A stretch of 64,000 nt of DNA, taken from NCBI GenBank assembly GCA_963846545.1, contig CAWJWG010000003.1:622192-686191 (forward strand), read 5' to 3'. This stretch comes from an uncultured Gemmatimonadales bacterium (GTDB taxonomy: Bacteria > Gemmatimonadota > Gemmatimonadetes > Gemmatimonadales > GWC2-71-9). The notes beneath the pieces are model-generated. The model searched no databases. It was not told the DNA's origin and was given only the letters and a program-made list of their open reading frames with translations. The translations under genes were made by a program, and so were the position numbers. Of the stretch, positions 4,500 to 57,054 are shown piece by piece (the first letter of the stretch is position 1; every line of letters begins with the position of its first letter).

Positions 4500-4677
4500 A
4501 GCTCTTCAATAAGCGGCGGAATGTAGCGGATACCCACTGGGCCGCAAGCCTGCTGCCGTATTGAACGAAAAGTTACTTATTTGTTGCTTTTGCTCTTGGG
4601 TGGGGAAGTCGCGGGGAGAACACCGCCAGGAACGGCTGATGACAGCCGGAAGCAACCGGTTGGAGGTATCCGCTCGG

Positions 4678-10713: not shown

Positions 10714-10754
10714 GGGGAGGAAGTATAGCTGGAGACGGTCGGCGCTCGGCAGCG

Positions 10755-13954: not shown

Positions 13955-13961
13955 GGTCTGA

Positions 13962-37740: not shown

Positions 37741-38899
37741 CTGGCCGCTCAGGCGCCGCGGTCGAGGCGCCTCCCGCCCTCCTCCCCGTCTACGCGCAAT
37801 TCCCCATTCGTCCCGTCCGCGGGCACGGCTCGTGGCTGGTGGACGAGGCGGGCGACGAGTGGCTCGACGCGTACGGCGGGCACGCCGTGGCCGCCACCGG
37901 ACACTCCCACCCCGACGTCGTGCGCGCGATCGCCACGCAGGCCGAGGCGCTGCTGTTCTATTCGACGGCGGTGCCCCACCCGCTCCGTGAGCGGCTGGCC
38001 CAGCGGCTGGCCGACCTCTGTCCGGCGCCGCTGGAGCGGGTGTTCTTCTGCAACTCCGGCGCGGAGGCGAACGAGAACGCCCTGCACCTGGCGCGCAAGT
38101 GGACGGGCAGACGGCAGATCGTTTCGGTGCGGGGCGGCTGGCACGGCCGCACGGTCGGGACACTCGCGTGCACCGACGGCGCACGCTACGAGGAGGCCGC
38201 GTCGCGCAGCGGCATCCCGCTCTCGCGTAAGGTGCCGGTGGACGACGTGGCGGCGCTCGAGGCCGCGGTGGACGGCGAGGTGGCCGCCGTCATCATGGAA
38301 CCGGTCCAGGGTCTCTCCGGCGCGCGCGACCTGTCGCCCGACTTCCTCCGCGCGGCTCGCCGCGCCTGCGACGCGCACGGCGCGGCCCTCGTGTTCGACG
38401 AGGTCCAGTGCGGCGTGGGCCGCTGCGGCGCGTTCAGCGCGGCGGAGGCGGTCGGGGTGATCCCGGACGTGCTGACGTTCGCCAAGGGCCTCGCCTCAGG
38501 GCTCCCCATCGGAGCGGTCGTCGCCACCTCGTCGGTGACCGCGGCCATCGGCATCGGCGATCTCGGAAGCACGTTCGGCGGCGGGCCGGTGCCCTGCGCG
38601 GCGGCGCTCGCCACGATCGATGTGATCGAGCGGGATGGCCTGGTGGGAAATGCCTTGCGGGTCGGCGCCCGGCTCGCGCGGGGGGCGCTGGCGCTCGGAG
38701 TCCGGCACGTGAGCGGCCGCGGGCTCCTGCTGGGACTGCATCTCGACCGCCCGGCCGCCGAGGTCCAGCGCGCCCTCTTCGCCCGGCGGATCATCACCGG
38801 CACCGCGTCCGATCCCGCGGTCCTCAGGCTGCTGCCGCCACTGTCATTTTCCGCGGAGGAGGCCGATCTCCTCCTCGCGGGTCTGAAGGAGGTACTCGC

Positions 38900-38903
<4 letters not shown>
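37734..38903 (+). CDS. argD: Acyl-ornithine aminotransferase (class III PLP)
   Basis: ORF of 389 aa with ..FFCNSGAEANE..HGRT..DEVQCGVGRCG..TFAKGLASGLPIGA. It overlaps the argC stop. Confidence 0.9.
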
Positions 38904-45683: not shown

Positions 45684-45831
45684 CACGTCCTCCAGGGGGG
45701 GACCTGCAGGTGCAGAATATTGCACTCGCCTTCGCCGCGACGAAGGCCATGGCTGTTTCTAAGAGGTTATCAATATGCCCTGTGCCCGGCGGCGCGCCAG
45801 TCGGGCGACTACGGACGGGGCCGCGAGACGC

Positions 45832-48399
45832 TTATGAACCGCTCCCGACCAGGTCCCGGAACTGGGCGTTCCCCTCCAGGGGTCGGAACCACCAGGTGGG
45901 GTCCGCGGCCAGGGAGGCGCGTTTCTCCGTGTTCGCGACGAGGTACTCCTTGAGCGACGCGACCGCCTCGGCGGTGTCGCCCAGCAGCGTATGCACGAAC
46001 GCGCCGGCGTACACCAGGTCCCGCGTGGGGTCGATCTCGTTATTGCCCTTGGAGCGAAGCACGAGCCGTCGCGCGCTGTCCGGAAGGTTGGCCCGCGCCA
46101 GCGTCGCGGCGACCATCATCCGGCCGTTGAGCGTCTGGAACACCCGATCCTGATCCGGCGCGATCCTGGCTATGGAGTCCGCAAGCCGCCAGGCCAGCGC
46201 GACGTCAGGCGTACGCGCTCGCGTGGTCAGAAGGTACAACTGGCACTCGATGAACTTCACGTCGGCCGGGAACCGACGCTGCCCGACTTCGCACCAGTGG
46301 TCGGCATCGGTGAACTGTCCCAAGTCGTAGGATGCGAAGAAGAGTCGGGCGAGCACAACATCGGCATTGCTGAGGTAGGCGTCTTCCTCGTATGCTCGCT
46401 GCGCCGCCAGCTTCACGTCCACCAGATTGCCCGTCTGGTACTTGAGGTGGGAGAGCGTCGCCCAGGCGCCGGCCTGGGACGGCGAGATCCGCACGGCCGT
46501 TTCCAGGTCCGCCTGCGCCGACGCCAGAAGTGCCTTGGCATCCGACGGGTCGGGCGTGAGGCTCAGCAGCCACCGCCAGTACTTGAGGTTGCCCCGCAGC
46601 TCGAGGGCGTCCGGGTCCGAGGGCGTCAGGGCGAGCGCGCGGTTGACGTGACCCATACCGATGCCGATCCACTTGCCGGCCGCCACCTGGTCGTTCGGAT
46701 CCAGGCGGGAGTGCCGGTACGCCGCTGCCGCCCTCGCGATCAACGGCTCCGGCCAGGCGGGATCCATCGTCTCCGCCGCCGCGAGCAGCGAATCGGCCGC
46801 GGCGAACTCGCGCTCCACGCCCGCCGTGTCCCCTCGCGCCGCGGCCCCCTCCGCCGCTTCACTCCGCCGCTGAGCCTGCTGTACAGCGGTCCAGGCCCGC
46901 ACGTCGCTGGTCCGACGGCGCTGCTGCCGCAGCTGGATCTCCTGCCCCAGCTGGCTTCGGATCTGGCGCGCCACTTCCTGGATCAGGGTGTCCTGGACGG
47001 CGAGGAGGTCGCCCGCCGGCAGCTCCCTGGTAGTGCGCGTCAGGTCCACGCCGCTCTGCCCGTCCACCAGCCGCACCGTGATGCGAAGCTGGCCGCCGAC
47101 CCGCTCCACGCTGCCCGTCACCAGCGCCCCCGCCTGGAGCGCGCGCGCGATGCTGTCGCGGCTGACGCTCGTGCCTCGGTAGGGCGCCACGCCGCCGGTG
47201 GAGACGACGTCCAGCGTCTGCACCTGGGAAAGCTCGCTGATCAATCCCTCGGTCAGGCCGTTCGCCAGGTAACCCAGTGAGTCACTGCCCCCTGCGTCCT
47301 CGAAGTACAGCACGGCGATCCGGTGGTCATTGAGCCCACCACCCGGGCGTCCGGCCGCCGTGCCGCCGCGGCCCCACAGGAGCCAGCCGGCCGCCGCCGC
47401 GCTCAGGAGAACGACGGCGCCCGCCGCGGACCAGAGCTTGGCGCCGGAGAGCCCGAGCACCGTCCGCTCCCCCGCGCCCGACACGCGCAAATTCCGCGTG
47501 CCGCGCGGTGTGGTCCGCCGGGCCGCCGGCACCCCGCGCGACGTGGTCCGCCGCACCGCGACCACCGACTCGAGGTCCGCCAGGACGTCGGCGAAGTCCG
47601 ACATCTTCTGAAAGCGGTCGGCTGGCGTCTTCTCCAGCGACTGCAGAACCGCATCCTCGACCTCGTCGGGGATCGACGGCCGCACCACCATCACGCTCGG
47701 CACCTGCTCCATCGTGTGCCGAGCCAGGATCGCCCGGGCGTTGGGCCCGTCGAAGGGCGGCTGGCCCACGAGCAGCTCGTAGAGCACGCACCCGAGGCTG
47801 TAGATGTCGCTCCGGCCGTCAGCCCCGTCGGCCCCCATGGCCTGTTCCGGACTCATGTAGTGCGGCGTCCCCACCGCCATGCCGGTCTGCGTCAGCTTCT
47901 CGCCCGCCGCATCCACCGCCCGGGCGATGCCGAAGTCGGCCACCAGCGCGTGGCCGTTCTGCAGCAGGATGTTCTCGGGCTTGATGTCGCGGTGGACCAC
48001 GCCCTGCCCGTGGGCGTAGGCGAGCCCCTCGGCGGCCTCGCGAATGATCCGGATGGCGTCGGGAATGGGAAGCTGCTGCTCGCGGTCGAGCCGGTGCCTG
48101 AGGGATTCGCCTTCGATGAACGGCATCACGTAATAGAGGATGCCGTTGATCTCCCCCGAGTCGTACAGGCCGAGGATGTTGGGGTGCTGGAGCGTGGCGG
48201 CCAGCCTGATCTCCCGGAGGAACCGATCGGCGCCGATGGACACGGCGAGCTCGGCCCTCAGGGTCTTGATGGCCACCTTGCGGCCATGGCGCAGGTCTTT
48301 CGCGAGATAGACCGTGGCCATGCCGCCTTCGCCGGCCAGACGCTCGACTTCGTACTTATCGCCGAGCGCGGCGCGAAGCTGCTCCAGTACGTCTGCCAA
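45832..48399 (-). CDS. Ser/Thr protein kinase with TM segment and large periplasmic helical-repeat (TPR-like) domain
   Basis: ORF of 855 aa with Hanks motifs GEGGMATVY, VAIK, HRDIKPENILL, DFGIA and SPEQ, followed by a TM (LWSAAGAVVLLSAAAAGWLLW) and a long repeat domain. Confidence 0.9.
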   Translation of the reverse strand: MADVLEQLRAALGDKYEVERLAGEGGMATVYLAKDLRHGRKVAIKTLRAELAVSIGADRFLREIRLAATLQHPNILGLYDSGEINGILYYVMPFIEGESLRHRLDREQQLPIPDAIRIIREAAEGLAYAHGQGVVHRDIKPENILLQNGHALVADFGIARAVDAAGEKLTQTGMAVGTPHYMSPEQAMGADGADGRSDIYSLGCVLYELLVGQPPFDGPNARAILARHTMEQVPSVMVVRPSIPDEVEDAVLQSLEKTPADRFQKMSDFADVLADLESVVAVRRTTSRGVPAARRTTPRGTRNLRVSGAGERTVLGLSGAKLWSAAGAVVLLSAAAAGWLLWGRGGTAAGRPGGGLNDHRIAVLYFEDAGGSDSLGYLANGLTEGLISELSQVQTLDVVSTGGVAPYRGTSVSRDSIARALQAGALVTGSVERVGGQLRITVRLVDGQSGVDLTRTTRELPAGDLLAVQDTLIQEVARQIRSQLGQEIQLRQQRRRTSDVRAWTAVQQAQRRSEAAEGAAARGDTAGVEREFAAADSLLAAAETMDPAWPEPLIARAAAAYRHSRLDPNDQVAAGKWIGIGMGHVNRALALTPSDPDALELRGNLKYWRWLLSLTPDPSDAKALLASAQADLETAVRISPSQAGAWATLSHLKYQTGNLVDVKLAAQRAYEEDAYLSNADVVLARLFFASYDLGQFTDADHWCEVGQRRFPADVKFIECQLYLLTTRARTPDVALAWRLADSIARIAPDQDRVFQTLNGRMMVAATLARANLPDSARRLVLRSKGNNEIDPTRDLVYAGAFVHTLLGDTAEAVASLKEYLVANTEKRASLAADPTWWFRPLEGNAQFRDLVGSGS

Positions 48400-48460
48400 T
48401 CACTGCCTCGGCGGGGGAGGAGGGTCCAGAACCTTGAAGATAAGCGGAAGGAAGCCTGCG

Positions 48461-49324
48461 CTAGACCCGTGCCCCGGTGAGGGATTCACGCATCGCCGCG
48501 GCGGTTTGCCAGCGCTCCTCGGGCGGCTTGGCCAGGGCCCGGGCGATGCCCTCGGCCAGCTCCCGTGGGGTGTCGGGCCGCAGGGTGCGGAGATCGGGCG
48601 CGGGCTGGGTGAGGTGGAGCTGGAGGACGACCGCCTCGTTCCGGTGGGTGAACGGCGGCTGCCCCGCCAGGCACTCGAAGAGGACGCAGCCGAGCGAGTA
48701 GATGTCGCTTCTGTGGTCGATCTCCTTGAGTGCGGTGATCTGCTCGGGGCTCATGTAGGTGGACGTGCCGACGGCGATGCCTGACCGGGTGAGCCGATCG
48801 CTGCCCGAGGCCGCGACCGCGCGGGCGATCCCGAAGTCCAGCAGGACCGCACCCTCGGGGGCGACTACCACGTTCTCCGGCTTCACGTCGCGGTGGACGA
48901 TGCCGTGCCCGTGGGCGTGGTCCAGCGCGTCGAGCAGGTTGTCGGCCAGGCGGAGCGCCTCGCCGATCGGCATCCGGCTCACCCGGCCCAGGTGCTCGCG
49001 AAGGGTGGGACCCTCCACGTACGTCATGACGTAGTAGACGATCCAGTCGCGCTCGCCGGAGTCGAGCAGATGGGCGATGAGGGGATGTTCGAGCTGGGAG
49101 CAGAGCCGGATTTCCCGGAGGAAGCGGTCGGCGGCGACGCTGACCAGCAGCTCCGGATGCAGGACCTTCAGGGCGACTTGGCGGCCGTCGGCATCGCGGG
49201 CGAGATAGATGCGGGCGTTCCCGCCCTTCCCGATCTCGCGCTCGACTCGGTACTGGCCCTCGAATGCGCGCTGCACCAGCGCCAGCATGTCCCGCGGAAT
49301 GGCCCGGTCCCCGTGATGGATCAT
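48461..49324 (-). CDS. Ser/Thr protein kinase, kinase domain only
   Basis: ORF of 287 aa with GKGGNARIY, VALK, HRDVKPENVVV, DFGIA and SPEQ. It has no sensor or TM region. It lies 52 nt downstream of the M50-HlyD gene. Confidence 0.9.
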   Translation of the reverse strand: MIHHGDRAIPRDMLALVQRAFEGQYRVEREIGKGGNARIYLARDADGRQVALKVLHPELLVSVAADRFLREIRLCSQLEHPLIAHLLDSGERDWIVYYVMTYVEGPTLREHLGRVSRMPIGEALRLADNLLDALDHAHGHGIVHRDVKPENVVVAPEGAVLLDFGIARAVAASGSDRLTRSGIAVGTSTYMSPEQITALKEIDHRSDIYSLGCVLFECLAGQPPFTHRNEAVVLQLHLTQPAPDLRTLRPDTPRELAEGIARALAKPPEERWQTAAAMRESLTGARV

Positions 49325-49376
49325 TCAATGGTCGCGCCTGAGCCCCCGGGGCGCAAGGCGCGGCGTCACGCGGAGT

Positions 49377-51431
49377 TCAGAACAGCACGTCGGTTCGGAT
49401 TCGGCTCCGGAGGGCCCACCAGAGGGAGCCCCAGATGTTGCTCTGCCGCAGCGTGATACGGGCCTCGCCGGTCATTCCGGGACGCAGGGTTTCGGCCGGA
49501 AGCCGGATGCGAGACTCCACGACGCCATCGGGTGAGGCCGATGCGGCCACACTGCCCACGGCCGCCTCGGCACGGACCCGCGGGTCTGCGCGCGCGATCA
49601 GACGAGCGGGTTGGCCCTGGCGGACCAGGGAGGCACCGGCCCGGTCCAAGGCGACGCGAGCCTCGATCCCGTTCCCCCTCACCCGGAGCAGCGTATCCCC
49701 GATCGAGACCGTCTTTCCGACCAGGGTGTCGGGGCGGGGAGATGTGACGATCCCCGATTCCGGGGCTCGGATCACCAGCGACCGTATCCGGTTCTCCATC
49801 CCGGCTAGACGGGCGGCCTCGGCGCCCCCCTGAGCCGTGATGCGAGCGACGTCTCCTTCCTGGCCCATCGCACGGGCCTGTGCGGCGCGCAGGTCGAGCG
49901 AGTCCACGGCGAGCGACGTCGCCGCCGCGGCGCGCTCGAGCTCGAGGTTTCGGATCAATGCCAACGGGGCGCCCGCACCGACCCGGCTCCCCTCCCTGAC
50001 CAGCACCTCGACCACCACGCCGCTGTCGGGGGCCACCAGGATCCCGCTGACGGTCGGGGAGACCACGAAAGGTCCCACCACCGTGATGGGCCAGGGGAGC
50101 AACCCCGCCACGGCGAGGCCCAGTGCGCCGGCGCCGAGCCCGGATTGGACCCGCCGCATCCGCCCGCTGGCCGACCATCTTGCCCGGGTCTCCCGCCACG
50201 CATCCGCCAGGGTCTGACGGAGACTTCGACGGATCGAGCGGGTCGTGAGCCAGACGAGCACCACGAGTGCGGCGACGCCGACCGCCCCGAAGACACGCGA
50301 CAGCCAGCCGTACGCGATCGCCCCGGCGACGAAGAACACCATCCCGGTGTATGCGGTGGCGAGGATGCCGTACAGCAGGAAGATCCGCTGCTCCCGCTCG
50401 TCGGCCGGCGGCATCGGCAGGTCCTGGCCGAGCCAGCGACTTCGAATGGTCCAGGCGAGATGGGCGAACGCTCGCTGGCGCAGGTTCGGCACCTCCAGCC
50501 AGTCGCTCAACGCGTAGTACCCGTCCAATGGGATCAGTGGGTTCAGGTTCACCAGGACGGCGGCGAGCCCCCCGACCAGGAAGAACGCCAGACCGACATC
50601 GGAGAGAAACGTGCCGGGCGCGGCGATCCACCAGACGATCGCCGCGATACTCGCCACGACCATCTCGATCCACGACCCCGCCGCGGTGACCCACAGGCGC
50701 GCCTTTCGCTCGGGGAAGGTCCAGGCGTCGTTCACGTTGCAGAAGAAGGCAAGCTCGAAGTAGAAGATCATCGCTCCGATCTCGTGCACCTTCCCGCCGA
50801 AGTACTTGCAGGTGTACCCGTGCGCCATCTCGTGCACCGCGACGATCACCATCGTCACCGCCCAGAGGAGCACGTAGTCCCGCAGCGAGGCGCGCAGCAG
50901 GTAGACGTCGCCCATCTCCTTCACGAACTCCGACCACTTGAGCGCCAGGATCGCGAAATACACCGCGAACAGGGCGACGGAGGTCATCAGGAAGCCGCGG
51001 CTGAAGAAGACCTTCAGGTAGGGAAGGGTCCGGTCCATGAATCGGTCGGGGTCGCCGACCGACCAGCGCAAGCGGAGGAGATCGCCCTGAAACGGGCCGG
51101 TGCGCAGCCGCTTTCGTCGCTGTGCCCGCAGCCGCTCCATCAGCACCACGGTGCTCTCCCGCAGCGTCCGCTCGCAAAGGCCCATCGTCTTGAGCTTCTC
51201 GGCGAACCGCGCGACCGTCGCGGCGGTGACCTTGATCCCCTGCTCGGCGAGCGATGCGGCCGCCTCGCCGGGGCTACGCAGGCCATCCAGCGATTGCATT
51301 ACCGCGACCTCGAGCGGACGGAAGCGAAAATACTTTCGGGTGGACGGATCCTTGACGATGAAGCTCTGCTCGCCCCGGTACGTCTGCTCCACCAGGACCA
51401 GGTCGGTGCGCAGACGGGGCTGTTCCGTCAT
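49377..51431 (-). CDS. Fusion protein: PqqD/RRE-like N-terminal domain + M50 (site-2-protease) membrane metalloprotease + C-terminal HlyD-type adaptor domain
   Basis: ORF of 684 aa. Its ATG overlaps the upstream stop (ATGA). It has HEMAH at codons 200-204 (nt 50820-50834) and NLNPLIPLDGY (the NxxPxxxLDG motif), with multiple TM segments. The C-terminal 230 aa form a lipoyl-like, short coiled-coil and barrel arrangement ending NIWGSLWWALRSRIRTDVLF. Confidence 0.85.
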   Translation of the reverse strand: MTEQPRLRTDLVLVEQTYRGEQSFIVKDPSTRKYFRFRPLEVAVMQSLDGLRSPGEAAASLAEQGIKVTAATVARFAEKLKTMGLCERTLRESTVVLMERLRAQRRKRLRTGPFQGDLLRLRWSVGDPDRFMDRTLPYLKVFFSRGFLMTSVALFAVYFAILALKWSEFVKEMGDVYLLRASLRDYVLLWAVTMVIVAVHEMAHGYTCKYFGGKVHEIGAMIFYFELAFFCNVNDAWTFPERKARLWVTAAGSWIEMVVASIAAIVWWIAAPGTFLSDVGLAFFLVGGLAAVLVNLNPLIPLDGYYALSDWLEVPNLRQRAFAHLAWTIRSRWLGQDLPMPPADEREQRIFLLYGILATAYTGMVFFVAGAIAYGWLSRVFGAVGVAALVVLVWLTTRSIRRSLRQTLADAWRETRARWSASGRMRRVQSGLGAGALGLAVAGLLPWPITVVGPFVVSPTVSGILVAPDSGVVVEVLVREGSRVGAGAPLALIRNLELERAAAATSLAVDSLDLRAAQARAMGQEGDVARITAQGGAEAARLAGMENRIRSLVIRAPESGIVTSPRPDTLVGKTVSIGDTLLRVRGNGIEARVALDRAGASLVRQGQPARLIARADPRVRAEAAVGSVAASASPDGVVESRIRLPAETLRPGMTGEARITLRQSNIWGSLWWALRSRIRTDVLF

Positions 51432-52411
51432 GGACCGTTCCGGACCACCTTCTCGCCACGGGCCAGGCCACTCACCACCTCGATTCGTTCGCCCGGCAGC
51501 TCCCCGCCGACCGTCACCTGCCGAAGCGACGTGCGGTCGGCGTCCCAGACCAGTGCGTACCCCTCCTCGATGGCCTCCCGTGGCACCGCGACCACTCGAC
51601 GCATCTCCGAGCCCATCTTCAGGGTGACGCTGCTTCCCGGCGGCAGTCGGTCCCCGTCGACCAGCTGAAGGACGACTTCCCGAGTACCGCTGGCAGGATC
51701 GATCACCGGACTGGCGCGAACCACCCGGGCCCGGGCGCGCTCGCCCCGCGGTCCCAGCACCACCGCTTCGGCACCCAGCTTTACCCCGAACGCGGAAGTC
51801 TCCGGCAGCCGGACCGAGGCGAGCACCGGACTCAAGGCCGTGAGGTGGAAGAGCGAGTCGCCATCCGAAACGAGTCGGCCGATCCGGGCGCTGCGTCCGG
51901 TCACGATGCCGCCGAAGGGGGCCACGATACGGGTGAGGTCGTAGTCGCGCTGCGCCTTCTGCAGTGCCAGCGTCGCCGAGCGCAGATCGAGCTCCACCCG
52001 CTCCGAGTCGGCCTGGGTCACCACCCCCGCGGACTTGAGTGCCCGCTGCCGCTCGGCCTGGACTTCGGCGTCCGCATGCCGGTCACGCGCCTGGGCCAGG
52101 GCGATGGACTGATCCGCGCTCTCCAGCCGGGCGAGCAGCTGCCCGGCCGAGACCCTGCTCCCGAGATCCGCCCCGATGGACTCCACGATCCCCGGCGACC
52201 GAGCGTAGATCGCCGCATCGTGCTCGACGTAGAGCTGGGCTGGCAGCGACAGCGGAACGTCGACGGTAACGGTGTCCGCCGTGACCAGGGCGGTGGCCGG
52301 CGTGCCCGTTGTGACCGCCGCAGTCTCCACCGATCCCTCGCTCTCGCGAACCGACGGCTTGTCGCACGCCGCTACGGCCATCCCGAGGAAGGTGACGGCG
52401 CACAATCTCAT
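51428..52411 (-). CDS. Efflux-type periplasmic adaptor (HlyD/MFP) lipoprotein
   Basis: 327 aa from ATG 52409-52411 (ATGA overlap with the GAF-HlyD stop). It has lipobox MRLCAVTFLGMAVAAC and canonical MFP lipoyl, hairpin and barrel order. Confidence 0.85.
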   Translation of the reverse strand: MRLCAVTFLGMAVAACDKPSVRESEGSVETAAVTTGTPATALVTADTVTVDVPLSLPAQLYVEHDAAIYARSPGIVESIGADLGSRVSAGQLLARLESADQSIALAQARDRHADAEVQAERQRALKSAGVVTQADSERVELDLRSATLALQKAQRDYDLTRIVAPFGGIVTGRSARIGRLVSDGDSLFHLTALSPVLASVRLPETSAFGVKLGAEAVVLGPRGERARARVVRASPVIDPASGTREVVLQLVDGDRLPPGSSVTLKMGSEMRRVVAVPREAIEEGYALVWDADRTSLRQVTVGGELPGERIEVVSGLARGEKVVRNGP

Positions 52412-54348
52412 GACCAGATCCTCCACCACATCAGCCGGGCCCAGCGGGTCGGTCCCCGCAGCGCCCGGGTTACGGTAGACGCGGCATCGGTGAGGACCCG
52501 CGCGTGGGCGGCCATGTCCGGCTTGAGGAGGCCGTCGGGGTTGGCGATGGCGGCCCGGACCGGATAGCGAACCTGGCCGTCCTGTACCGACGGGAGCTCC
52601 CCGATCGAGATCACCCGCCCGTCGAACGTCCGGGAAGGAAGGGCATCCACCCGCAGGCGCACTTCCTGGCCCGATCGGACCCGCAGGATGTCCTCCTGCG
52701 CCACGCCGAACTCGAGCTCGAGGGTATCGGTCCGGCCCAGCACCAGCAGCTGGTCGCCCTCGGCGAGGGAGGTGCCGGTTCGCTCCTCCATTCGGGGAGT
52801 CAGCACCATGCCGGCCGCCGGCGCACGAACGGTGGTCAGCCCCAGCTCCTCGTCCAGCAGGGCCAGCGCGCGTCGCAACGCCTCGCCCCGGATCCGGTGC
52901 AGCCTCTCCTCGGCGGCGTCGCCCCGGCTGGCCGCGAGGGAGGCGAGCCGGTCGGCTGTCGCCGCGTCTCCCGCGGTGGCCTCCCGCTCGGCGGCGAGCG
53001 ACGTGGCTCGCAGCACGGCGAGCAGATCGCCTCGCTGGACCCGGCCTCCCTCCCGGACCGCGACGCGTTCGATGGTGCCGTCCACCAGCACCCGTACCGG
53101 TGTGAGAGCGTTGGGACGCAGCACAGGCTGATCTCCCGAGACCCGAAGCGGCCAGCGGATCAGTGTGATCGCCGCCAGGAGGAGCAGCGCCACCCCGGCG
53201 ATGGTCTGGATCCGGCGGCGGGGCAGGGCGAACAACGCCTGCCGGCGCGCGGCCAGGGCGCCAAGCGCGTCGACCAACGGCACCTGGTGATAGAGCTGCG
53301 CGTTGCGCAGCGCCACGCCGGTCTGGTTGGCCAGGATCGCCGCCACCTCGCGCTGAGTCTCGTTCGCGAATTCCGGGGTCGCGGACTCGAAGAGCAGCAC
53401 ACCGAGGATGCCCTCCTCATCCTTCAGCGGCAGGTAGAGCGCGCTCCGTACCTGATCGTTGGCCAGGTCCTGGCCGAAGATGGTGACGAACAGGCGCTCG
53501 GCGTCCGATGAGGGATCCTCGCGCTCGGACAGGTAGAGCGGCTCGCCTCGTCCCGCGGCCCACTCCGCCCGAGCGATCAGGTCGCGCAAACGCGGGTCAT
53601 CCGGGTTCACCTTCTCCTGCCCGGCGACGGCGCGGATCTCGCACTTGCCCTTGTCGTAGAGACCGACGGCACCGCGATCGAAGTTCAGCGCTCTCGACGC
53701 CAGGTTGACCACCGACTGGAGGACCCGGTCGATGTCGAGGGTGGCGCCGATCTCGCGGCTGATCTCCAGTAGAACCGCCAGGTCGCGGGCCCGGCTTTCG
53801 GCCCCGTGCAGCTGGGCATTTCGCAGCGAGCTGGCCGCGGCCGCCGCCAGACCCTCCAGCAGCTCGCGGTCGCGTGCGTCGAAGGCGCCGCTGCCGGTGC
53901 GCTTGTCCACCACCTGGATGGCGCCGACCGTCACCCCGCCGGCCACCATCGCCGTCGCCATGACGGTGGTGGCGATCGTATCCTCGTTGGCGTCGGTGGC
54001 CTCGCGGTACCGAGGGTCGCTCGCGGCCTCCATGACCATGGTGGTCCGCTGCTTCTGCGCCACGTCGCCGACGAATCCGGTGCCGATCGGCATCTCGGCG
54101 CCCACCAGCCGGGCGCCGGCTCCGCCGACCGCGAGCCGGCAGTGCAGCATGTCGCCCTCGGCGATCCACAGCGAGCCTCCGGCCGCGCCCACGGCCGTCA
54201 GCACCCGGTCGAACACCCGGGGCAGCAGCTGGTCGAAATCGAGGGTGGCGTTGAACTCGAGGGTGATCGAGTGCAGGAGTCGGAGCCGCTCGACCTCGAG
54301 GCGCAGTTCCTCCAGCGAGGCTGGCGGCACGCTAAGGACGTCGGGCAT
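52408..54348 (-). CDS. Tandem GAF - TM - HlyD-type adaptor fusion protein
   Basis: ORF of 646 aa with two cytoplasmic GAF modules (..GSLWIAEGDMLHC..GFVGDVA..; ..RGAVGLYDKGKCEIRAV..ALYLPLKDEEGILGVLLFES..). These are followed by a single TM (IQTIAGVALLLLAAITLI) and a periplasmic HlyD domain ending RWARLMWWRIWS. Confidence 0.85.
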   Translation of the reverse strand: MPDVLSVPPASLEELRLEVERLRLLHSITLEFNATLDFDQLLPRVFDRVLTAVGAAGGSLWIAEGDMLHCRLAVGGAGARLVGAEMPIGTGFVGDVAQKQRTTMVMEAASDPRYREATDANEDTIATTVMATAMVAGGVTVGAIQVVDKRTGSGAFDARDRELLEGLAAAAASSLRNAQLHGAESRARDLAVLLEISREIGATLDIDRVLQSVVNLASRALNFDRGAVGLYDKGKCEIRAVAGQEKVNPDDPRLRDLIARAEWAAGRGEPLYLSEREDPSSDAERLFVTIFGQDLANDQVRSALYLPLKDEEGILGVLLFESATPEFANETQREVAAILANQTGVALRNAQLYHQVPLVDALGALAARRQALFALPRRRIQTIAGVALLLLAAITLIRWPLRVSGDQPVLRPNALTPVRVLVDGTIERVAVREGGRVQRGDLLAVLRATSLAAEREATAGDAATADRLASLAASRGDAAEERLHRIRGEALRRALALLDEELGLTTVRAPAAGMVLTPRMEERTGTSLAEGDQLLVLGRTDTLELEFGVAQEDILRVRSGQEVRLRVDALPSRTFDGRVISIGELPSVQDGQVRYPVRAAIANPDGLLKPDMAAHARVLTDAASTVTRALRGPTRWARLMWWRIWS

Positions 54349-54434
54349 GCGCAGAGTATGCGCCCCGGGCGGCTGTTACGAAAGAGGCATGCCCGATGTG
54401 GTCGAGGTGGGGCCGGCTGTGCTGAAAAGCCGAA

Positions 54435-54465
54435 GCGCCGGCCCCGTTGTCATCGGGGCCGGCGC
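54435..54465 (-). terminator. Strong GC hairpin between the peptide gene and the GAF-HlyD gene (terminator/attenuator candidate)
   Basis: GCGCCGGCCCCG-ttgtcat-CGGGGCCGGCGC is a perfect 12-bp stem. On the minus-strand transcript it is followed by UUCGGCUUUUCAG. It lies 21 nt after the peptide stop and 87 nt before the next ATG. Confidence 0.5.
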
Positions 54466-54485
54466 CTCGGGTCGCTCGGGAGGGA

Positions 54486-54641
54486 CTACTTCTTGAAGCC
54501 CTTGGCCCGCGGGGCGATCCTCTCCTCCAGCTCTTCGACGGTAAGCTCGACCGCCTCGGCATCCTTCCCGGTCTCGTTCCGAACTTGCGCCTTCTGCTCG
54601 GGAGTCAACTCGATGCGGAACTGGCCCTTGGAGCTGTCCAT
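54486..54641 (-). CDS. Small 51-aa peptide (candidate precursor/substrate of the adjacent M50-HlyD machinery)
   Basis: ATG 54639-54641 is preceded by GGAGGG at 4-nt spacing. The product is MDSSKGQFRIELTPEQKAQVRNETGKDAEAVELTVEELEERIAPRAKGFKK. The track ORF (71 aa) begins further upstream without an RBS. Confidence 0.6.
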   Translation of the reverse strand: MDSSKGQFRIELTPEQKAQVRNETGKDAEAVELTVEELEERIAPRAKGFKK

Positions 54642-54713
54642 GGTACCCTCCGAAAGTGTTTTTGCGAGCCCACCAGTATTGGCGAAAGAACTAGGAAGCA
54701 ATGTCGGGAGGTG

Positions 54714-54754
54714 CCGTGAATCTTCCGTGAATCCCTATTGCCCTTCCGTGAATC
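54714..54754. promoter_or_regulatory. Three phased direct repeats CCGTGAATC in the divergent peptide/SARP promoter region
   Basis: CCGTGAATC occurs at 54714, 54725 and 54746 (spacing 11 and 21 nt). Copies 2 and 3 are extended to TTCCGTGAATC. The repeats lie 73-113 nt upstream of the peptide ATG and 39-79 nt upstream of the SARP-like GTG. Confidence 0.4.
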
Positions 54755-54792
54755 GACGGTAGTTTGGGCGTGTTACCCCCCAGGACAATTGC

Positions 54793-57054
54793 GTGCCCGG
54801 TACCGTGCTGACCTTGATCGGATCTCCCGCCGTCGCACGCGCCGACGGAGAGCCTGTCTCGCCGCCGCCCGGCGCCAAGGCGCTCGCCCTCCTCGCCTAC
54901 CTCACGCTAGAGCCCCGCCCCCACACCCGCGAAGCGCTGGCCGATCTGCTCTGGGGAGAGTCGCCCGAGGTCGAGGCGCGGGCCTCTCTCCGCCAGGCCC
55001 TCAAGCAGCTCCGCGACTCGCTCGCCACCATGGTCCACTGCGACCGGAAGCTGGTGCGGCTCGACGAGCCGGTGAGGTGCGACGTGACGGAATTCCTCCG
55101 CCAGGCGGAGACCGATCCCGAAGCTGCCGCGAGCGTGGACATCCCCCGGTTTCTCGCCGGCTTTTCCATTCGTCACGCGCCCCAGTTCGACGACTGGGTG
55201 GCCGAGACCAGGACGTCGCTGCTGCAGCGTTACGCGGCCGTGCTCGGCACCCTGGCGCGAGACGCGATGGACCGGCGGCGCTGGCGGGACGCGGCAGAGC
55301 GGGCCGACCGCTGGCTGGCCAGCGACCGCCTCTCGGATGAAGCGGCACGGGTCGCCATCGAGGCCAGGTACCTCGCCGGCGACCGGGGTGCAGCGCTCGC
55401 CCGGCTGGCGGAGTATCGGAGCGCCCTGCTTCAAGCGACCGGCTGCGAGCCATCCCACGATCTGATCGCGCTCGGACGCCGGATCGAAGCCGAGGCGGGC
55501 CAGGCGCGCGCCGCGCCCGACAGCGACGAATGGTACGCCCGGGCTCCCTCGTTCGACGCCAGCCTGATCGGACGGAGCGACGAGTGGAACACGCTGACGG
55601 CGGTGTGGAAGTCGGCGGCCAAGGGCGCGCGCCGGATCCTGCTGATCGAAGGGGAGGCCGGGGTCGGGAAGTCGCGGCTGGTGGAGGAGTTCCTGCGCAC
55701 GGTCGTGGCCGGCGGGGCCACGGTGTTACGGGGGCGCGGCTACGATGCTACCGCGGCGGTGCCGTTCGCTCCGGTGGTGGAGGCGCTCCGCGCTGCATTA
55801 GACGCGCCGGGCCTCGCCGGCACCGATCCGGAGTGGCTGACCGAAGTGGCGAGGCTGCTGCCCGAGCTGCGGCAGCGCTTCCCTGGTCTGGCCGAGCCCG
55901 AGCCCACGGCCGATCCGACCGACGCCTGGCGGCTCTTCGAGGCTGTAGCCCAGGTGATCGGCTCGCTCGCCGCCGAGCGGCCGCTGGTGATCTCGGTGGA
56001 CGATCTCCAGTGGTGCGACGAGGACAGCTGCAAGCTGATCCAGTTCCTCGCGCGGCGGCTCGACCGCGCGCCGATTCTCTGGCTGGGCACGACCACCCTG
56101 GGCGAGCTGGAGCGCGACGCACCGGCCGCCCGCCTCTGCCGGACTCTCCGTGCCCGGGCCGGAGCGGAGACGATCGCGCTGTCCGGGCTCTGCGAAGAAG
56201 ACGTCTGGCGGCTGGTGCGGGAGCTGGGCCACGTGAGCACGCCGACCGGTGCCCGTCGCTTCGCCAGCCGGATCTCCCGCATCACCAGTGGGAACCCGTT
56301 CTACATCTTCGAGCTCATCAAGACGATGTTCGCCCAGGGGCTGCTGGCGGCGGACGAGCGGACCGGCGAATGGACGGCGTCGCCGTCGGCGCTCGAGGCG
56401 GGCAAGGAGTTCCCGGTCTCCCGTACGGTGCACGACGTCATCGCCGAACGGGTCGACCGGCTCCCTGAGGAGCTGGGGGAGGTCCTCATCACCGTCGCGG
56501 TGGCCGGCGGTCCCGGTTGCCGACCGGAGGCGCTCTCACACGTGCATGGCATCTCCCGGCTCCATGCGGCGGCTGTGTGCGACGCGCTGGCGGAGCGCCG
56601 CCTGCTGGTGGAGGGCGCCGGCGTCTATCGCTGCCTCCATCCGGTCGTCGCCCATGTGGTGCGCGACGGGCTCACGCGGACTCGGCGGCGCGAGGTCCAC
56701 CGTGCGCTGGCCGCGTCCCTGGAAGCGGTCACGCCGGAGGCCCACACGCGGAGCGTCGCGGGCGAAATGGCGCGCCATGCGGAGCAGGGAGGCGACCGGC
56801 GCTTGGCCTACCGTTCGGCACTGCTTGCCAGCGAGGGGGCGCTGGAGCGCTTCGCCTTCTCCGAAGCGCTCTCCTGGCTCGATCTCGCCTCGGCGGTGGC
56901 GGACGACCGCAGCGAGGCCGGCGAAGTGGATCGCCGGACCGCGTCGCTGCTGGAGACAGCGGGCTGGAGCGAAGTGCCGGCAGGAGGTGCCGGACGGGCT
57001 CCCGTCACCCGCGAGATTGTGGGAGAGGACCTGGACCTGCCCGTGCGGGGGTGA
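54793..57054 (+). CDS. SARP-type regulator: OmpR-like wHTH + BTAD + AAA/STAND ATPase + helical C-terminal domain (AfsR-like)
   Basis: ORF of 753 aa. The N-terminus (KALALLAYLTLEPRPHTREALADLLWGE..ARASLRQALKQLR) and ..RYLAGDRGAALARLAEYRSALLQATGCEPSHDL.. form the DNA-binding/BTAD pattern. It has Walker A LIEGEAGVGKSRL and Walker B LVISVDDLQWCD. Confidence 0.85.
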   Translation: MPGTVLTLIGSPAVARADGEPVSPPPGAKALALLAYLTLEPRPHTREALADLLWGESPEVEARASLRQALKQLRDSLATMVHCDRKLVRLDEPVRCDVTEFLRQAETDPEAAASVDIPRFLAGFSIRHAPQFDDWVAETRTSLLQRYAAVLGTLARDAMDRRRWRDAAERADRWLASDRLSDEAARVAIEARYLAGDRGAALARLAEYRSALLQATGCEPSHDLIALGRRIEAEAGQARAAPDSDEWYARAPSFDASLIGRSDEWNTLTAVWKSAAKGARRILLIEGEAGVGKSRLVEEFLRTVVAGGATVLRGRGYDATAAVPFAPVVEALRAALDAPGLAGTDPEWLTEVARLLPELRQRFPGLAEPEPTADPTDAWRLFEAVAQVIGSLAAERPLVISVDDLQWCDEDSCKLIQFLARRLDRAPILWLGTTTLGELERDAPAARLCRTLRARAGAETIALSGLCEEDVWRLVRELGHVSTPTGARRFASRISRITSGNPFYIFELIKTMFAQGLLAADERTGEWTASPSALEAGKEFPVSRTVHDVIAERVDRLPEELGEVLITVAVAGGPGCRPEALSHVHGISRLHAAAVCDALAERRLLVEGAGVYRCLHPVVAHVVRDGLTRTRRREVHRALAASLEAVTPEAHTRSVAGEMARHAEQGGDRRLAYRSALLASEGALERFAFSEALSWLDLASAVADDRSEAGEVDRRTASLLETAGWSEVPAGGAGRAPVTREIVGEDLDLPVRG

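Follow-up and report, generated by a model that had tools for sequence, protein, structure and literature searches.

A conserved Gemmatimonadales locus encoding a leader-bearing small peptide and an RRE-M50-HlyD fusion: a candidate peptide processing and export module

Gene content and conservation of the locus

The locus occupies positions 45832 to 57054 of the window, the whole 64-kb stretch of DNA analysed here, in a soil bacterium of the Gemmatimonadales. A sequence-only reading had listed a small peptide gene with a hairpin behind it, three membrane genes, two kinase genes, and a divergent regulator gene with phased repeats in the shared promoter. All of these elements were found, each where it had been placed.

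45832 to 48399, minus strand: Hanks Ser/Thr kinase of 855 aa (Pkinase, 5.3e-52; weak TPR matches; TM prediction), with the kinase at residues 1-290, a TM helix at ~325-343 and an extracytoplasmic TPR-like domain of ~510 aa
48461 to 49324, minus strand: Hanks Ser/Thr kinase of 287 aa, kinase domain alone (Pkinase, 2.1e-45)
49377 to 51431, minus strand: RRE-M50-HlyD fusion of 684 aa (NF041824, Pfam, AF2, Foldseek and profile matches), with a seventh TM helix at residues ~434-452
49380 to 50099, minus strand: MacA-like adaptor of the fusion, residues 445-684
50820 to 50834, minus strand: HEMAH, residues 200-204, in the M50 core of the fusion (residues ~120-400), which also holds NLNPLIPLDG at residues 295-304
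51168 to 51431, minus strand: PqqD-like RRE of the fusion, residues 1-88
51428 to 52411, minus strand: lipoprotein MFP of 327 aa (TIGR01730 RND_mfp, 7.8e-47, above the cut-off), with an ATGA overlap at either end
52408 to 54348, minus strand: GAF-GAF-TM-HlyD adaptor of 646 aa (Pfam GAF, 2.4e-24; HlyD_D23, 2.2e-21; TM prediction; synteny), with cytoplasmic GAF domains at ~36-174 and 205-349, a TM helix at 383-401 and a periplasmic adaptor at 415-614
54430 to 54470, minus strand: GC-rich hairpin, 17-bp stem and 7-nt loop
54486 to 54641, minus strand: precursor peptide gene, 51 aa, MDSSKGQFRIELTPEQKAQVRNETGKDAEAVELTVEELEERIAPRAKGFKK
54486 to 54488, minus strand: stop codon of the precursor gene
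54489 to 54509, minus strand: predicted core RAKGFKK, residues 45-51
54510 to 54641, minus strand: precursor leader, residues 1-44, ending ...VELTVEELEERIAP
54714 to 54752: three heptads in direct repeat, reading TTCACGG on the strand of the peptide gene and CCGTGAA on the plus strand (54714-20, 54725-31 and 54746-52)
54793 to 57054, plus strand: AfsR-like SARP/STAND regulator of 753 aa (wHTH, BTAD, AAA_16 and a C-terminal helical region)

Pfam and NCBIfam confirmed the domains of the three membrane genes, which together encode three periplasmic adaptor domains (Pfam, TIGR01730); the ATGA overlaps were confirmed at both the GAF-HlyD/MFP and the MFP/RRE-M50-HlyD junctions. Translation of the MFP starts at the ATG at 52411 (a GTG at 52429 was rejected), and the resulting N-terminus, MRLCAVTFLGMAVAAC, is a lipoprotein-type signal. 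Next come the two Hanks kinase genes, the gaps ahead of them measuring 52 and 61 nt. The locus is flanked on one side by arginine-biosynthesis genes and on the opposite side by genes for CoxG, malate synthase, an HlyIII protein and a GT4 glycosyltransferase.

The whole order, a divergent SARP gene followed by precursor(s), GAF-HlyD, lipoprotein MFP, RRE-M50-HlyD, kinase and kinase-TPR, recurs in ~80 Gemmatimonadota loci, with synteny reaching down to 37-39% identity in loci of the Longimicrobiales. Recurrence of the entire gene order is far beyond chance. The GAF-HlyD gene is syntenic in these related loci and also in distant triad loci (those with GAF-HlyD, M50-bearing and HlyD proteins together).

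The 51-aa gene is preceded by its own ribosome binding site (GGAGG, 7 nt ahead of the ATG) and has more than 500 homologues, among which a coding signature is evident, codon position 3 holding 60% of the nucleotide differences. Behind it, and separating it from the machinery genes, stands the hairpin (−44.2 kcal/mol; z = −4.2 versus shuffles), which was present in the same position, with another sequence, in 18 of 18 related loci checked. A simple terminator scan did not call the hairpin at 54430-54470 because its U-tract is short (4 U after the stem). It is probably an attenuating terminator or an mRNA stabilizer.

The precursor leader and its proposed recognition by the fusion protein

The precursor falls into two parts: a leader of 44 aa that is nearly invariant and ends in ELEERIAP and a hypervariable, cationic tail of 2 to 14 aa. 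In a survey of 109 precursor genes from 59 loci, 106 distinct tails were counted, with a median length of 7 and enrichment in K, P, R, and G. Their C-termini are K, P, L, N, and others, with neither an invariant residue nor a conserved Thr. In the leader, by comparison, E-8, L-7, E-6, R-4, A-2, and P-1 are invariant, as are Thr residues. Where two or three paralogous precursors occupy one locus, they differ mainly in their tails. JGI labels some of the homologues DUF1192, but the window peptide had no Pfam match to that family.

The fusion protein carries the features of peptidase M50, an HExxH motif in a TM helix and NxxPxxxLDG, and both motifs, reported as intact from sequence alone, are indeed so; in an alignment of 57 homologues, H200, E201, H204, N295, N297, P298, D303, and G304 are invariant. 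The Pfam M50 score is 23.9, below the gathering score of 27.2. NF041824 (daptide_HExxH) was matched along the full length of the model, at 1e-62 and 212.4 bits over residues 9-396, which span the RRE and M50 parts; the curated cut-off of 300 was not reached. The C-terminal part matched MacA (3fpp, E = 1.5e-13) and also MexA. Seven TM helices are predicted, a topology that would leave the RRE on the cytoplasmic side of the membrane and the adaptor on the periplasmic side.

The N-terminal domain had been described as PqqD-like. By itself, the domain of the window protein gave no match to Pfam PqqD, a model matched by 11 of 19 relatives; its profile matched PaaA, TbiB1, and PqqD. An AF2 model of the fusion (pLDDT, 83.9) gave the N-terminal domain a beta-beta-beta-alpha-alpha-alpha order (strands 12-18, 21-28, and 33-37; helices 39-47, 54-63, and 70-83), in keeping with the RRE fold, in which a three-stranded sheet leads into a winged helix of three helices, as in PqqD and lasso B1 proteins. 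When the RRE-only model was searched with Foldseek, the top nine matches were all RREs, including lasso B1 and CteB, several of them solved with leader bound; the best was 6jx3 (TM-score of 0.74, normalized to target length; rmsd of 2.6 Å). By predicted fold and by profile, the N-terminal domain is thus a true RiPP recognition element.

The closest parallel to the leader and protease is provided by the daptides. Their precursor, MpaA, has an ELExMEAP leader (E-8, L-7 ... A-2, P-1) that is removed at that point, and an RRE is N-terminally fused to the site-2 protease MpaP (Ren et al. 2023, PMC10036551). In both systems, the RRE and the M50 core form one protein with the RRE at its N-terminus, small precursor genes adjoin the protease gene, and the ELEERIAP of the locus shares E-8, L-7, A-2, and P-1 in the same register. 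By homology to daptides, cleavage would therefore fall after Pro44. The differences are also substantial: (i) the locus lacks the tailoring genes MpaB, MpaC, MpaD, and MpaM, as well as the C-terminal Thr; (ii) in place of a hydrophobic helix, its core consists of 2 to 14 residues that are hydrophilic and cationic; (iii) its protease ends in an HlyD adaptor and has two further adaptors as partners; and (iv) its host is diderm. Searches of the locus and of ~10 kb on either side for a DUF-RRE MpaB, an oxidative decarboxylase, an aminotransferase, or a methyltransferase of the daptide type found none. The aminotransferase gene at 37698-38903 belongs to the arg operon.

The daptide leader peptidase has its nearest relative in the RRE-M50 protease, and daptides share the leader motif; both would also fit a cryptic RiPP pathway, daptide-like or other, in which tailoring enzymes encoded elsewhere modify the tail before leader removal and yield an antimicrobial product. 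Candidate tailoring genes do stand beside the precursor at some solo loci, where M50-HlyD occurs without the triad (a B12-radical SAM gene in L168 and a 2OG-Fe(II) oxygenase gene in L167). Even so, we regard this explanation as improbable: the window has no tailoring enzyme within ~10 kb, ~80 related loci conserve their gene order without one, the tails offer no invariant residue to modify whereas daptides need a C-terminal Thr, an immunity gene is absent, and tails of 3 to 5 aa are implausible as antibiotics.

The M50 enzyme YydH had been offered as a precedent for peptide maturation. EpeP/YydH is indeed an M50 enzyme that matures a small peptide and is thought both to cleave and to export it, so the comparison is apt, but it is more distant than that with the daptide protease, as its model (NF058609) matches the fusion at 3.7e-10 versus 1e-62. 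Another M50 protease, Eep, frees short pheromones from precursor ends. Both EpeP and Eep belong to Gram-positive hosts and lack the RRE-HlyD architecture, and the locus has no radical SAM epimerase.

Adaptors without a pump and leader-protease pairs at distant loci

The absence of a pump, a TolC-like factor, and a modification enzyme, noted from the sequence at the outset, held for 45832-57054 and for ~10 kb on either side, where no ABC, RND, or MFS pump, OEP, or tailoring enzyme was found; a TolC-type outer-membrane factor was also absent from the 64-kb window. A canonical pump is not a regular neighbor in relatives either, since, in two sets of 80 and 86 related loci, ABC-like ORFs lie nearby in 1 and 4 loci, respectively, and polytopic ORFs in 3 and 2. 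At distant M50-HlyD loci, TolC-like genes are often adjacent (OEP genes adjoin L081, L083, L131, L150, and L156), while ABC or RND pumps almost never are.

A conventional tripartite efflux or type I secretion operon was also weighed against these data; its ABC, RND, or MFS pump would be unlinked, and neither the small ORF nor the M50 domain would have more than an incidental part in transport. In its favor, the periplasmic adaptor domains of all three membrane proteins are genuine, unlinked outer-membrane factors are common, and in one relative (L074) the triad is adjoined by an ABC-like gene in divergent orientation and by a polytopic gene. A pump is, however, normally encoded with its adaptors, as in the TetR-MFP-AcrB operon at 2-4505 of the same window, and the rarity of ABC-like ORFs, the statistically strong linkage of precursor, RRE, and M50, and the invariance of the M50 catalytic residues make this reading very doubtful.

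The claim that no known system has such an architecture was overstated. Kamneva, Poudel, and Ward (2015, PMC4452313) described, bioinformatically, a type I secretion-like set of GAF-HlyD, Peptidase_M50(-HlyD), HlyD, and a secondary SecA_DEAD protein; an ABC transporter was absent, the M50 membrane domain was proposed as the transporter substitute, and OEP genes were sometimes adjacent. The locus likewise encodes GAF-HlyD, M50-bearing, and HlyD proteins together, and such triads were recovered here. The Gemmatimonadota loci differ in having a SARP and Hanks kinases in place of SecA_DEAD, and neither a substrate, nor a leader motif, nor an RRE was identified in PMC4452313. Thus, the three-adaptor core without an ABC protein (2015) and the pairing of an RRE-protease with a leader (2023, PMC10036551) were already known; the link of the leader motif, as substrate, to M50-HlyD appears to be unreported in the literature searched. 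The original interpretation is sustained in part: the small ORF is real, conserved, and tied to the M50 fusion, whereas an M50 core acting as the inner-membrane conduit and a gating of the process by GAF domains and phosphorylation are suggestions only. Of the outcomes named at the outset as refuting that interpretation, none was encountered: both the neighborhood and the ORF are conserved, and an adjacent ABC or RND pump is not a feature of relatives.

SecA_DEAD was sought by tblastn with the motor segment of E. coli SecA. Neither the window nor the Gemmatimonadota loci yielded a match, and among distant loci only L138, L152, and L154 had a SecA_DEAD-like ORF; SecA_DEAD was also absent from the Pfam tables of the loci looked up. 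No energy source for transport (ABC, SecA_DEAD, or RND) is encoded at the locus, which counts against export, as do tails of 3 to 7 residues, which are very short for a secreted product. To our knowledge, substrate translocation has been demonstrated for no M50 protein.

With moderate confidence, we favor the reading of the locus as a leader-peptide-dependent processing and export module. The following steps are proposed: (i) in the cytoplasm, the PqqD-like RRE that opens the M50-HlyD protein would bind the 51-aa precursor via its ...LxVEELEERIAP leader; (ii) the intramembrane M50 metalloprotease would cleave after Pro44; (iii) the tail, in this genome RAKGFKK, would be set free as a short cationic peptide without modification; (iv) the fused periplasmic adaptor, GAF-HlyD, and the lipoprotein MFP would form a MacA/HlyD-like assembly; and (v) this assembly would dock on a TolC-type channel encoded elsewhere, through which the product would leave the cell. 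What the data show is the anatomy of the locus, its conservation, the RRE fold, and the leader motif with its genetic linkage to M50-HlyD genes; the cleavage site, export itself, which channel serves, what powers transport, and a signaling role for the locus are what we infer. Peptidase-containing ABC transporters use a C39 domain to cut a double-glycine leader, act with an HlyD-type adaptor and TolC, and handle cargoes from small peptides to large proteins. The RRE-M50 unit may stand in place of the C39-ABC unit, an N-terminal leader being recognized and cut by a protease within the export machine in each case. This likeness is analogy, not homology: the locus has an M50 metalloprotease, not a C39 cysteine protease, along with another leader and no ABC ATPase.

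Pairing of the leader motif with M50-HlyD was also found far beyond the Gemmatimonadota. LE[EDQ]R[IV]AP occurred 21 times in 86 distant M50-HlyD loci versus 0 in each of 20 shuffles, the strong matches were all codirectional with M50-HlyD, and all five solo loci examined by gene context had a precursor immediately upstream. The pairing, in which the leader carries the motif that RRE-fused site-2 proteases recognize, spans many phyla, with cargoes of 4 to more than 1,400 residues that range from Gly/Pro/Asn-rich peptides up to acidic repeat proteins of 1,350 to 1,460 aa. These giant proteins, with an N-terminal ...KKLEERIAP and no Sec signal, adjoin triads. At many distant triad loci, a recognizable leader ORF was not found. 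The recurring pair of tag and protease suggests a widespread, uncharacterized export route without a conventional pump.

The Planctomycete "extracellular" motif (PF07595) reads RRLxxExLExRxLLA in Rhodopirellula and LxLExLExRxxP in Tuwongella (PMC8567305). The L-T-V-E-E-L-E-E-R-I-A-P of the locus fits the latter at six of seven fixed positions, with V for L, but precedes a cargo of 7 residues rather than a giant adhesin, and the window peptide did not match the 20-residue PF07595 model at E ≤ 10. Downstream of M50-HlyD, L107 and L126 encode proteins with LRVESLEPRKMLS and KLESRTLLA, and the L107 protein adjoining M50-HlyD matches PF07595 at 5e-4, below the cut-off. A link between the motif and M50-HlyD may thus be drawn from a few loci; no paper making it was found in the literature searched.

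A broader reading is put forward as possible only, and we hold it tentatively. RRE-M50-HlyD, by itself or in company with GAF-HlyD and a lipoprotein adaptor, would be a distinct, widespread, ABC-less export pathway of diderms whose substrates are marked by an N-terminal LxLExLExRxxP / ExLExR leader; the RRE would bind this leader and the M50 domain would remove it, and the signal would be the same as the PF07595 motif on giant surface proteins; Gemmatimonadota would have co-opted this pathway with Hanks kinases and an AfsR-like SARP, releasing hypervariable, strain-specific signals of 3 to 14 residues. If this were true, the long-unexplained Planctomycete motif would be an export leader.

Candidate control by the SARP regulator and Hanks kinases

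The divergent gene has features of an AfsR-type SARP. Regulators of the SARP class combine an OmpR-type wHTH with BTAD and bind heptads in direct repeat, and the AfsR-like ones also have a STAND ATPase. BTAD was matched above the cut-off (5.8e-5; 23.9 versus 22.1 bits), AAA_16 at 2.4e-30, and Trans_reg_C weakly (18.5 versus 26.2 bits); the gene is syntenic in related loci and likewise in L103, L111, and L115. The three TTCACGG heptads, whose starts are 21 and 11 nt apart, lie inside the 151-nt divergent intergenic region and are kept in at least 15 related loci. Where there are two promoters (L011 and L013), the repeat pair is duplicated ahead of each precursor gene. From these sequence features, the heptads, conserved in the promoter of a putative target, are presumed to be the SARP operator.

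In the AfsK-AfsR-AfsS system of Streptomyces, a small downstream ORF is activated via direct heptad repeats with ~11-nt phasing. The locus has the same ingredients, namely a SARP with BTAD and a STAND ATPase, Hanks kinases, a small ORF, and heptad repeats. The similarity is at the level of domains only (NF053615 matches the kinase domain alone), the phylum is another, and the small ORF is unrelated to AfsS.

Activation of a small protein by AfsR is an established paradigm, and it raises the prospect of intracellular regulatory proteolysis, in which the 44-aa N-terminal polypeptide would itself be the AfsS-like product, M50 would only activate or destroy it, the tail would be unconstrained, and the HlyD assembly would separately serve an envelope-sensing or structural role. 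Leader identity (~75%) exceeds that of any enzyme of the locus (50 to 66%), so the N-terminal part, not the tail, could be the functional product. The leader has invariant Thr residues, and its long LTPEQ...ATGKDA module occurs only with GAF-HlyD triads and Ser/Thr signaling genes (Hanks kinases in Gemmatimonadota and L165; FHA-GAF-PP2C in L165 and L169). Against this, the same motif heads cargoes of 30 to 80 aa and others longer than 1,350 aa, in which the C-terminal part is clearly the product; the tails are always kept, K/R/P/G-biased, and distinct in 106 of 109 cases, which resembles diversification rather than decay; and the two or three paralogous precursors of one locus vary chiefly in the tail. 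We judge regulatory proteolysis to be unlikely.

For the processing and export module, we propose that the AfsR-like SARP drives precursor transcription via the three heptads and that the hairpin 3' of the precursor gene would limit how far transcription runs on into the genes of the machinery. Input from the two Hanks kinases, of which one has a TPR sensor outside the cytoplasm, may feed this control as that of AfsK does for AfsR, and it would possibly close an autoinduction loop. The 287-aa kinase is syntenic in related loci at 72 to 93% identity, while the sensor part of the 855-aa kinase is the most divergent component of the locus, with a median identity of 47%.

Gene order and regulatory sequences of the locus

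All domains named in the sequence-only reading were recovered with Pfam and NCBIfam, and the two ATGA overlaps and the gaps of 52 and 61 nt were exactly as claimed; its observation of the locus was fully confirmed. The features are as follows.

45832-48399, minus: Hanks kinase, 855 aa, with one TM helix and a TPR-like extracytoplasmic domain (Pfam, NCBIfam)
48461-49324, minus: Hanks kinase, 287 aa (Pfam, NCBIfam)
49377-51431, minus: fusion of an RRE, an M50 protease and an HlyD domain, 684 aa (Pfam, NCBIfam)
51428-52411, minus: membrane-fusion protein (MFP), lipoprotein (Pfam, NCBIfam)
52408-54348, minus: GAF-GAF-TM-HlyD protein (Pfam, NCBIfam)
54430-54470, minus: GC-rich hairpin of 17 bp, -44.2 kcal/mol, z = -4.2 (folding)
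54486-54641, minus: precursor ORF, 51 aa, with a GGAGG ribosome-binding site
54793-57054, divergent: BTAD/AAA_16 regulator, AfsR-like SARP (Pfam, NCBIfam)

The G+C content of the region is ~70%, and close homologues were found exclusively in Gemmatimonadales MAGs. The flanks are housekeeping, with an arginine-biosynthesis cluster on one side and genes for CoxG, malate synthase A, an HlyIII protein and a GT4 glycosyltransferase on the other. Directly downstream of the long kinase gene, a 619-aa predicted lipoprotein is encoded (43866-45725, minus strand) that has no Pfam or NCBIfam match; about nine related loci encode a homologue with 28 to 44% identity in the equivalent place, and the protein may or may not be part of the system.

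A conservation scan using one genome per species returned 80 related loci (L001 to L080), almost all of which belong to Gemmatimonadales, while Longimicrobiales or other Gemmatimonadota contribute three. On contigs of sufficient length, the divergent SARP gene was followed by one or more precursor genes and then by the GAF-HlyD, MFP, M50-HlyD, kinase and kinase-TPR genes. In the Longimicrobiales loci (37 to 39% identity), all three adaptor genes still lie together, and the precursor gene has been relocated downstream. One genome, MAG SMAG_U14297, carries two paralogous copies of the whole locus (L010 and L039), with fusions 66% and 54% identical to that of the window, which would be in keeping with several peptide systems operating side by side in a cell.

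The intergenic promoter contains three TTCACGG repeats, with start spacings of 21 to 23 and 11 nt, that are conserved family-wide; in loci with two promoters, the repeat pair is duplicated, one before each precursor gene. Classically, a SARP operator consists of direct heptad repeats spaced at one or two turns of the helix. The promoter repeats appear to form a conserved SARP-type operator, and binding by the SARP is predicted. A simple terminator and promoter scan of 54300-54850 called nothing, and the hairpin was therefore judged by folding. In all 18 loci examined, a hairpin follows the last precursor gene and precedes GAF-HlyD; the stem sequences differ. Downstream of it, a CATA(C/A)T(C/A) element lies 8 to 12 nt before the GAF-HlyD start codon (window 54349-54365, gcgCATACTCtgcgcATG); the element has the same position in L001, L004, L013, L027, L073 and other related loci and may act as an internal promoter or in translation initiation.

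Precursor peptides and the RRE-M50-HlyD fusion

More than 500 homologues of the small ORF were found, near-invariant over residues 1 to 44 and hypervariable from the end of ...EELEERIAP onward. In 59 of the genome loci, 109 precursor genes were identified, most often as tandem pairs or triplets (a lone gene in the window), and these 109 have 106 different tails. The tails have a median length of 7, are rich in K, P, R and G, and span 2 to 14 residues, apart from four longer read-through cases. Across 93 leaders, third codon positions took 60% of the nucleotide differences, and L-33, T-32, T-21, G-20, A-17, E-13, E-8, L-7, E-6, R-4, A-2 and P-1 never varied. Judged by these substitution patterns, the small ORF appears to be a translated gene, with the leader under strong purifying selection and the tail under none or diversifying selection. 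Such extreme conservation would also suit a rival reading in which the 44-residue fragment is itself the real, intracellular product; the retention and diversification of the tails, and the series of cargoes described below, argue against that reading. The small ORF has the layout of a leader-core precursor.

Neither NCBIfam nor Pfam has a model for the precursor or related precursors. A JGI label of "DUF1192" on some homologues was not reproduced, because the precursor has no Pfam match. The tandem genes of the related loci, mostly two or three per locus, encode distinct leader subtypes (for example, L017 2792-2941, L024 1688-1837, L033 2049-2204 and L063 4782-4937). One short subtype has tails of 3 to 5 residues that start with Met (MKAH, MKI, MRLN), and several relatives have an extra precursor gene beyond the SARP gene.

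The fusion matched the NCBIfam daptide intramembrane metalloprotease model over residues 9 to 396 (1e-62, full model, below the equivalog cut-off) and the YydH/LiaK model at only 3.7e-10. Pfam PqqD was matched by 11 of 19 relatives (best E = 1.8e-6), the window sequence on its own being unmatched, and the best sequence matches in the PDB to a profile of the N-terminal 112 residues were PaaA, TbiB1 and PqqD. AlphaFold models gave a beta-beta-beta-alpha-alpha-alpha order for the N-terminal domain. The adaptor domain dominated Foldseek results with the whole fusion; with the N-terminal domain modeled separately, each of the nine best matches was an RRE (leader-bound structures of lasso B1 proteins, and CteB), with probabilities of 0.97-1.00 and 6jx3 as the best (TM-score of 0.74, normalized to target length). 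By profile and model, the N terminus of the fusion has an RRE fold. The catalytic residues of HExxH and NxNPLxxLDG were invariant in 57 homologues, and the M50 active site is intact. Seven predicted TM helices would place the RRE in the cytoplasm and the C-terminal adaptor, which is MacA/MexA-like with an alpha-hairpin by model and Foldseek, in the periplasm.

According to Ren et al. (2023, PMC10036551), the daptide class came to light via RRE domains carried at the N terminus of a site-2 protease, leader removal is the role proposed for MpaP, and the leader ends in ELExMEAP with E-8, L-7, D-6, P-5, M-4, E-3, A-2 and P-1. The window leader ends in the same register with E-8, L-7, E-6, E-5, R-4, I-3, A-2 and P-1; cleavage is thus predicted after Pro44, with a 7-residue product, RAKGFKK. 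A daptide cluster was rejected as an identity for the locus, because daptide tailoring genes (searched for in the locus and about 10 kb to either side) and a conserved C-terminal Thr were not found.

Pumps, channels and cargo classes

Adjacent pumps of the ABC, RND and MFS types were searched for and rejected. The earlier claim that no pump is encoded at the locus held in the wider sample, since ABC-ATPase-like ORFs lay near only 1 of the 80 related loci and 4 of 86 distant M50-HlyD loci (distant loci carry handles from L081 upward); large polytopic ORFs lay near 3 and 2, respectively. Among the 80, the only ABC-like and polytopic pair adjoining a triad (GAF-HlyD, HlyD/MFP lipoprotein and M50-HlyD genes) was in L074 (Longimicrobiaceae; 222-4005, minus strand), where 717-aa ABC-ATPase-like and 420-aa 9-TM ORFs are divergent beside it. 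The sole pump of the window belongs to a canonical TetR-MFP-AcrB operon (2-4505, minus strand), 41 kb from the locus.

2-2719, minus: AcrB-family RND pump (runs off the window)
2698-4080, minus: MFP
3807-4505, minus: TetR

Ordinary adaptors in this genome are thus encoded beside their pump, unlike those of the locus. Both this operon and the linkage of leader, RRE and M50 contradict the alternative of an ordinary efflux operon whose pump is encoded elsewhere, and a canonical tripartite pump was rejected because the locus has no transporter. An outer membrane channel gene (OEP) and a SecA-like ATPase gene are both absent from the window, and SecA_DEAD was rejected as a motor, being absent from the window and the Gemmatimonadota loci; a SecA_DEAD-like ORF was present in three distant loci, and TolC-like genes are adjacent in five. 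Nothing among the locus genes is an obvious means of powering translocation. We know of no M50 protein demonstrated to be a transporter; the M50 protein EpeP is suspected to transport.

The fusion family comprises 2,879 clusters at 50% identity (E <= 1e-30), throughout which the N-terminal domain, the motifs and the adaptor are retained; source names include Planctomycetes, Oligoflexia, "Ca. Magnetomorum," Ignavibacteriales and Gemmatimonadetes. A six-frame search of the 86 distant loci for LE[EDQ]R[IV]AP gave 21 occurrences, versus 0 in each of 20 triplet shuffles, and the strong HMM leader matches all lay on the strand of the M50-HlyD gene. A relaxed regular expression was rejected, since its 47 and 44 matches on the two strands left it without discriminating power; only strict motif and HMM matches were counted. 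Leader and protease are genetically linked across phyla, and three classes of cargo follow the motif.

Class (i): long LTPEQ...ATGKDA...LEERIAP leader with tails of 4 to 13 residues, adjoining triads and often SARP or kinase genes too; Gemmatimonadota, L103, L110, L111, L115
Class (ii): short leader with a Gly/Pro/Asn-rich core of 30 to 80 residues (for example, repeated GYEGQPGNQG), directly upstream of M50-HlyD genes that lack the other two triad genes (solo); L101, L109 (three copies), L113, L117, L134, L149, L156, L159, L163, L164, L166, L167, L168
Class (iii): acidic repeat proteins with 1,350 to 1,460 residues past the motif, starting ...KKLE(E/D)RIAP, adjoining triads and OEP genes; L082, L083, L084

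The class (iii) giants (L082 10957-15432, L083 9867-14048 and L084 11677-15888) are Thr/Asp/Pro-rich and have neither a Sec-type signal nor a Pfam domain; they suggest that whatever follows the motif is cargo and that the motif itself serves at the N terminus for targeting and cleavage. Straight after it, they share (A/G)M(M/L/V)GG(G/M)V(V/L)DG, and a similar (I/L)GGG element in some short tails (for example, RKKGFIGGGPVN and QMLGGGIL) hints at a second conserved element after the predicted cleavage site.

GYEGQPGNQG repeats follow LE(E/Q/P)RIAP in L164 (9610-9780), L167 (9677-9838), L168 (9726-9899), L101 and L134. The precursor/M50-HlyD pair is flanked by a B12-binding radical SAM gene in L168 and by a 2OG-Fe(II) oxygenase gene in L167, and these cargoes may therefore be modified peptides. 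Such neighbors at some solo loci favor a RiPP with unlinked tailoring enzymes as a rival reading of the whole system, whereas the tails have no conserved modifiable residue, and tailoring genes are absent from the window and from the conserved order of the ~80 loci.

Many distant triad loci, including the soil loci L086 to L100 and others, have no recognizable leader ORF, so that the leader/protease pairing generalizes incompletely; there are probably leaders of other types or substrates encoded elsewhere. In L081 ("Ca. Magnetomorum" HK-1), the order HlyD-OEP-GAF(-HlyD)-M50-HlyD is followed by a 47-aa ORF (11397-11540) without the IAP motif.

Published precedents and a proposed export route

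The sequence-only reading knew of no characterized system with this architecture, which is overstated: the core module and the protease/leader logic have each been described, separately. Kamneva et al. (2015, PMC4452313) noted the missing ABC transporter of the three-adaptor module, proposed the M50 membrane domain as a pore and called the biological role completely unknown, with no substrate reported. A secondary SecA_DEAD belongs to that module, whereas the window and the Gemmatimonadota loci are without it. M50-HlyD fusions are unmentioned in two RRE survey papers; the literature searched did not connect the motif or leader with M50-HlyD, and full-text searches for the leader motif returned unrelated words only. 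The finding is real and goes beyond a domain curiosity, but it has precedent. The locus is filed here under M50 leader peptidases that depend on an RRE; its enzyme is fused to one periplasmic adaptor and has others alongside, and neither tailoring enzymes nor a pump are encoded with it.

An N-terminal export motif of Planctomycete giant surface proteins was reported in 2004 and 2021. In Tuwongella immobilis, LxLExLExRxxP occurs on 52 proteins, including 8 of the 10 longest of the genome (PMC8567305); the window leader (L-T-V-E-E-L-E-E-R-I-A-P) agrees at six of the seven fixed positions and has V instead of L at the other. Downstream of M50-HlyD genes, an L107 protein with Ig domains (12864-14117) begins LRVESLEPRKMLS, and an L126 protein (10194-15632) begins KLESRTLLA; both are below the cut-off for PF07595, the Pfam model of the motif (E = 5e-4 and E = 2, respectively). 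PF07595-like proteins are common in Planctomycete genomes, and these two cases are thus only a lead.

From the parts and their order, the leader/core layout and the MacA-like adaptors, we infer that the leader would be bound by the RRE in the cytoplasm and cleaved by M50 after Pro-1 and that the cargo would exit via the three-adaptor assembly and an unlinked TolC-type channel. The hairpin would set the precursor-to-machinery ratio, and the AfsR-like SARP, modulated by the kinases, would activate the precursor promoter. Less probable than not is a broader reading, in which this is a separate export pathway that depends on the leader and accounts for the Planctomycete signal as well. It would join by one testable mechanism the pump-less "type I-like" module of 2015, the Planctomycete motif and the RRE-site-2 proteases that remove daptide ELExxxAP leaders. 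If the fusion recognizes, cleaves and exports this leader family, it would represent a new route across diderm envelopes, and how it is energized becomes a question. It would also provide a rule by which secreted peptides and proteins could be predicted across thousands of uncultured lineages (~2,900 fusion clusters), a possible peptide-signaling system in Gemmatimonadota and a portable leader/protease pair for engineered peptide secretion.

More speculatively, the TPR domain of the long kinase might sense the released hypervariable peptide and close an autoinduction loop. This sensor is the most divergent part (47% identity); codiversification with the tails was uninformative either way, because periplasmic parts generally diverge faster. 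Another speculation is that the invariant threonines of the long leader are targets of the kinases or of the FHA-PP2C proteins encoded at L165 and L169. These triad loci of another lineage encode an FHA-GAF-SpoIIE (PP2C) protein (L165 14758-16404, minus strand; L169 4437-6134, plus strand) and a sigma-54 two-component pair. At L165, which is grouped with class (i), three kinase-TPR genes accompany a precursor with a short leader, ...KKLERKIAP followed by KVKRPPQI. The kinase and PP2C genes of the two loci suggest that Ser/Thr phospho-signaling recurs with the long leader and its invariant Thr residues; in L169, a 78-aa ORF (12355-12591, minus strand) reads IKLTQEQREQIKNATGKDLAELKVGTVEDRANP and then LSGG....
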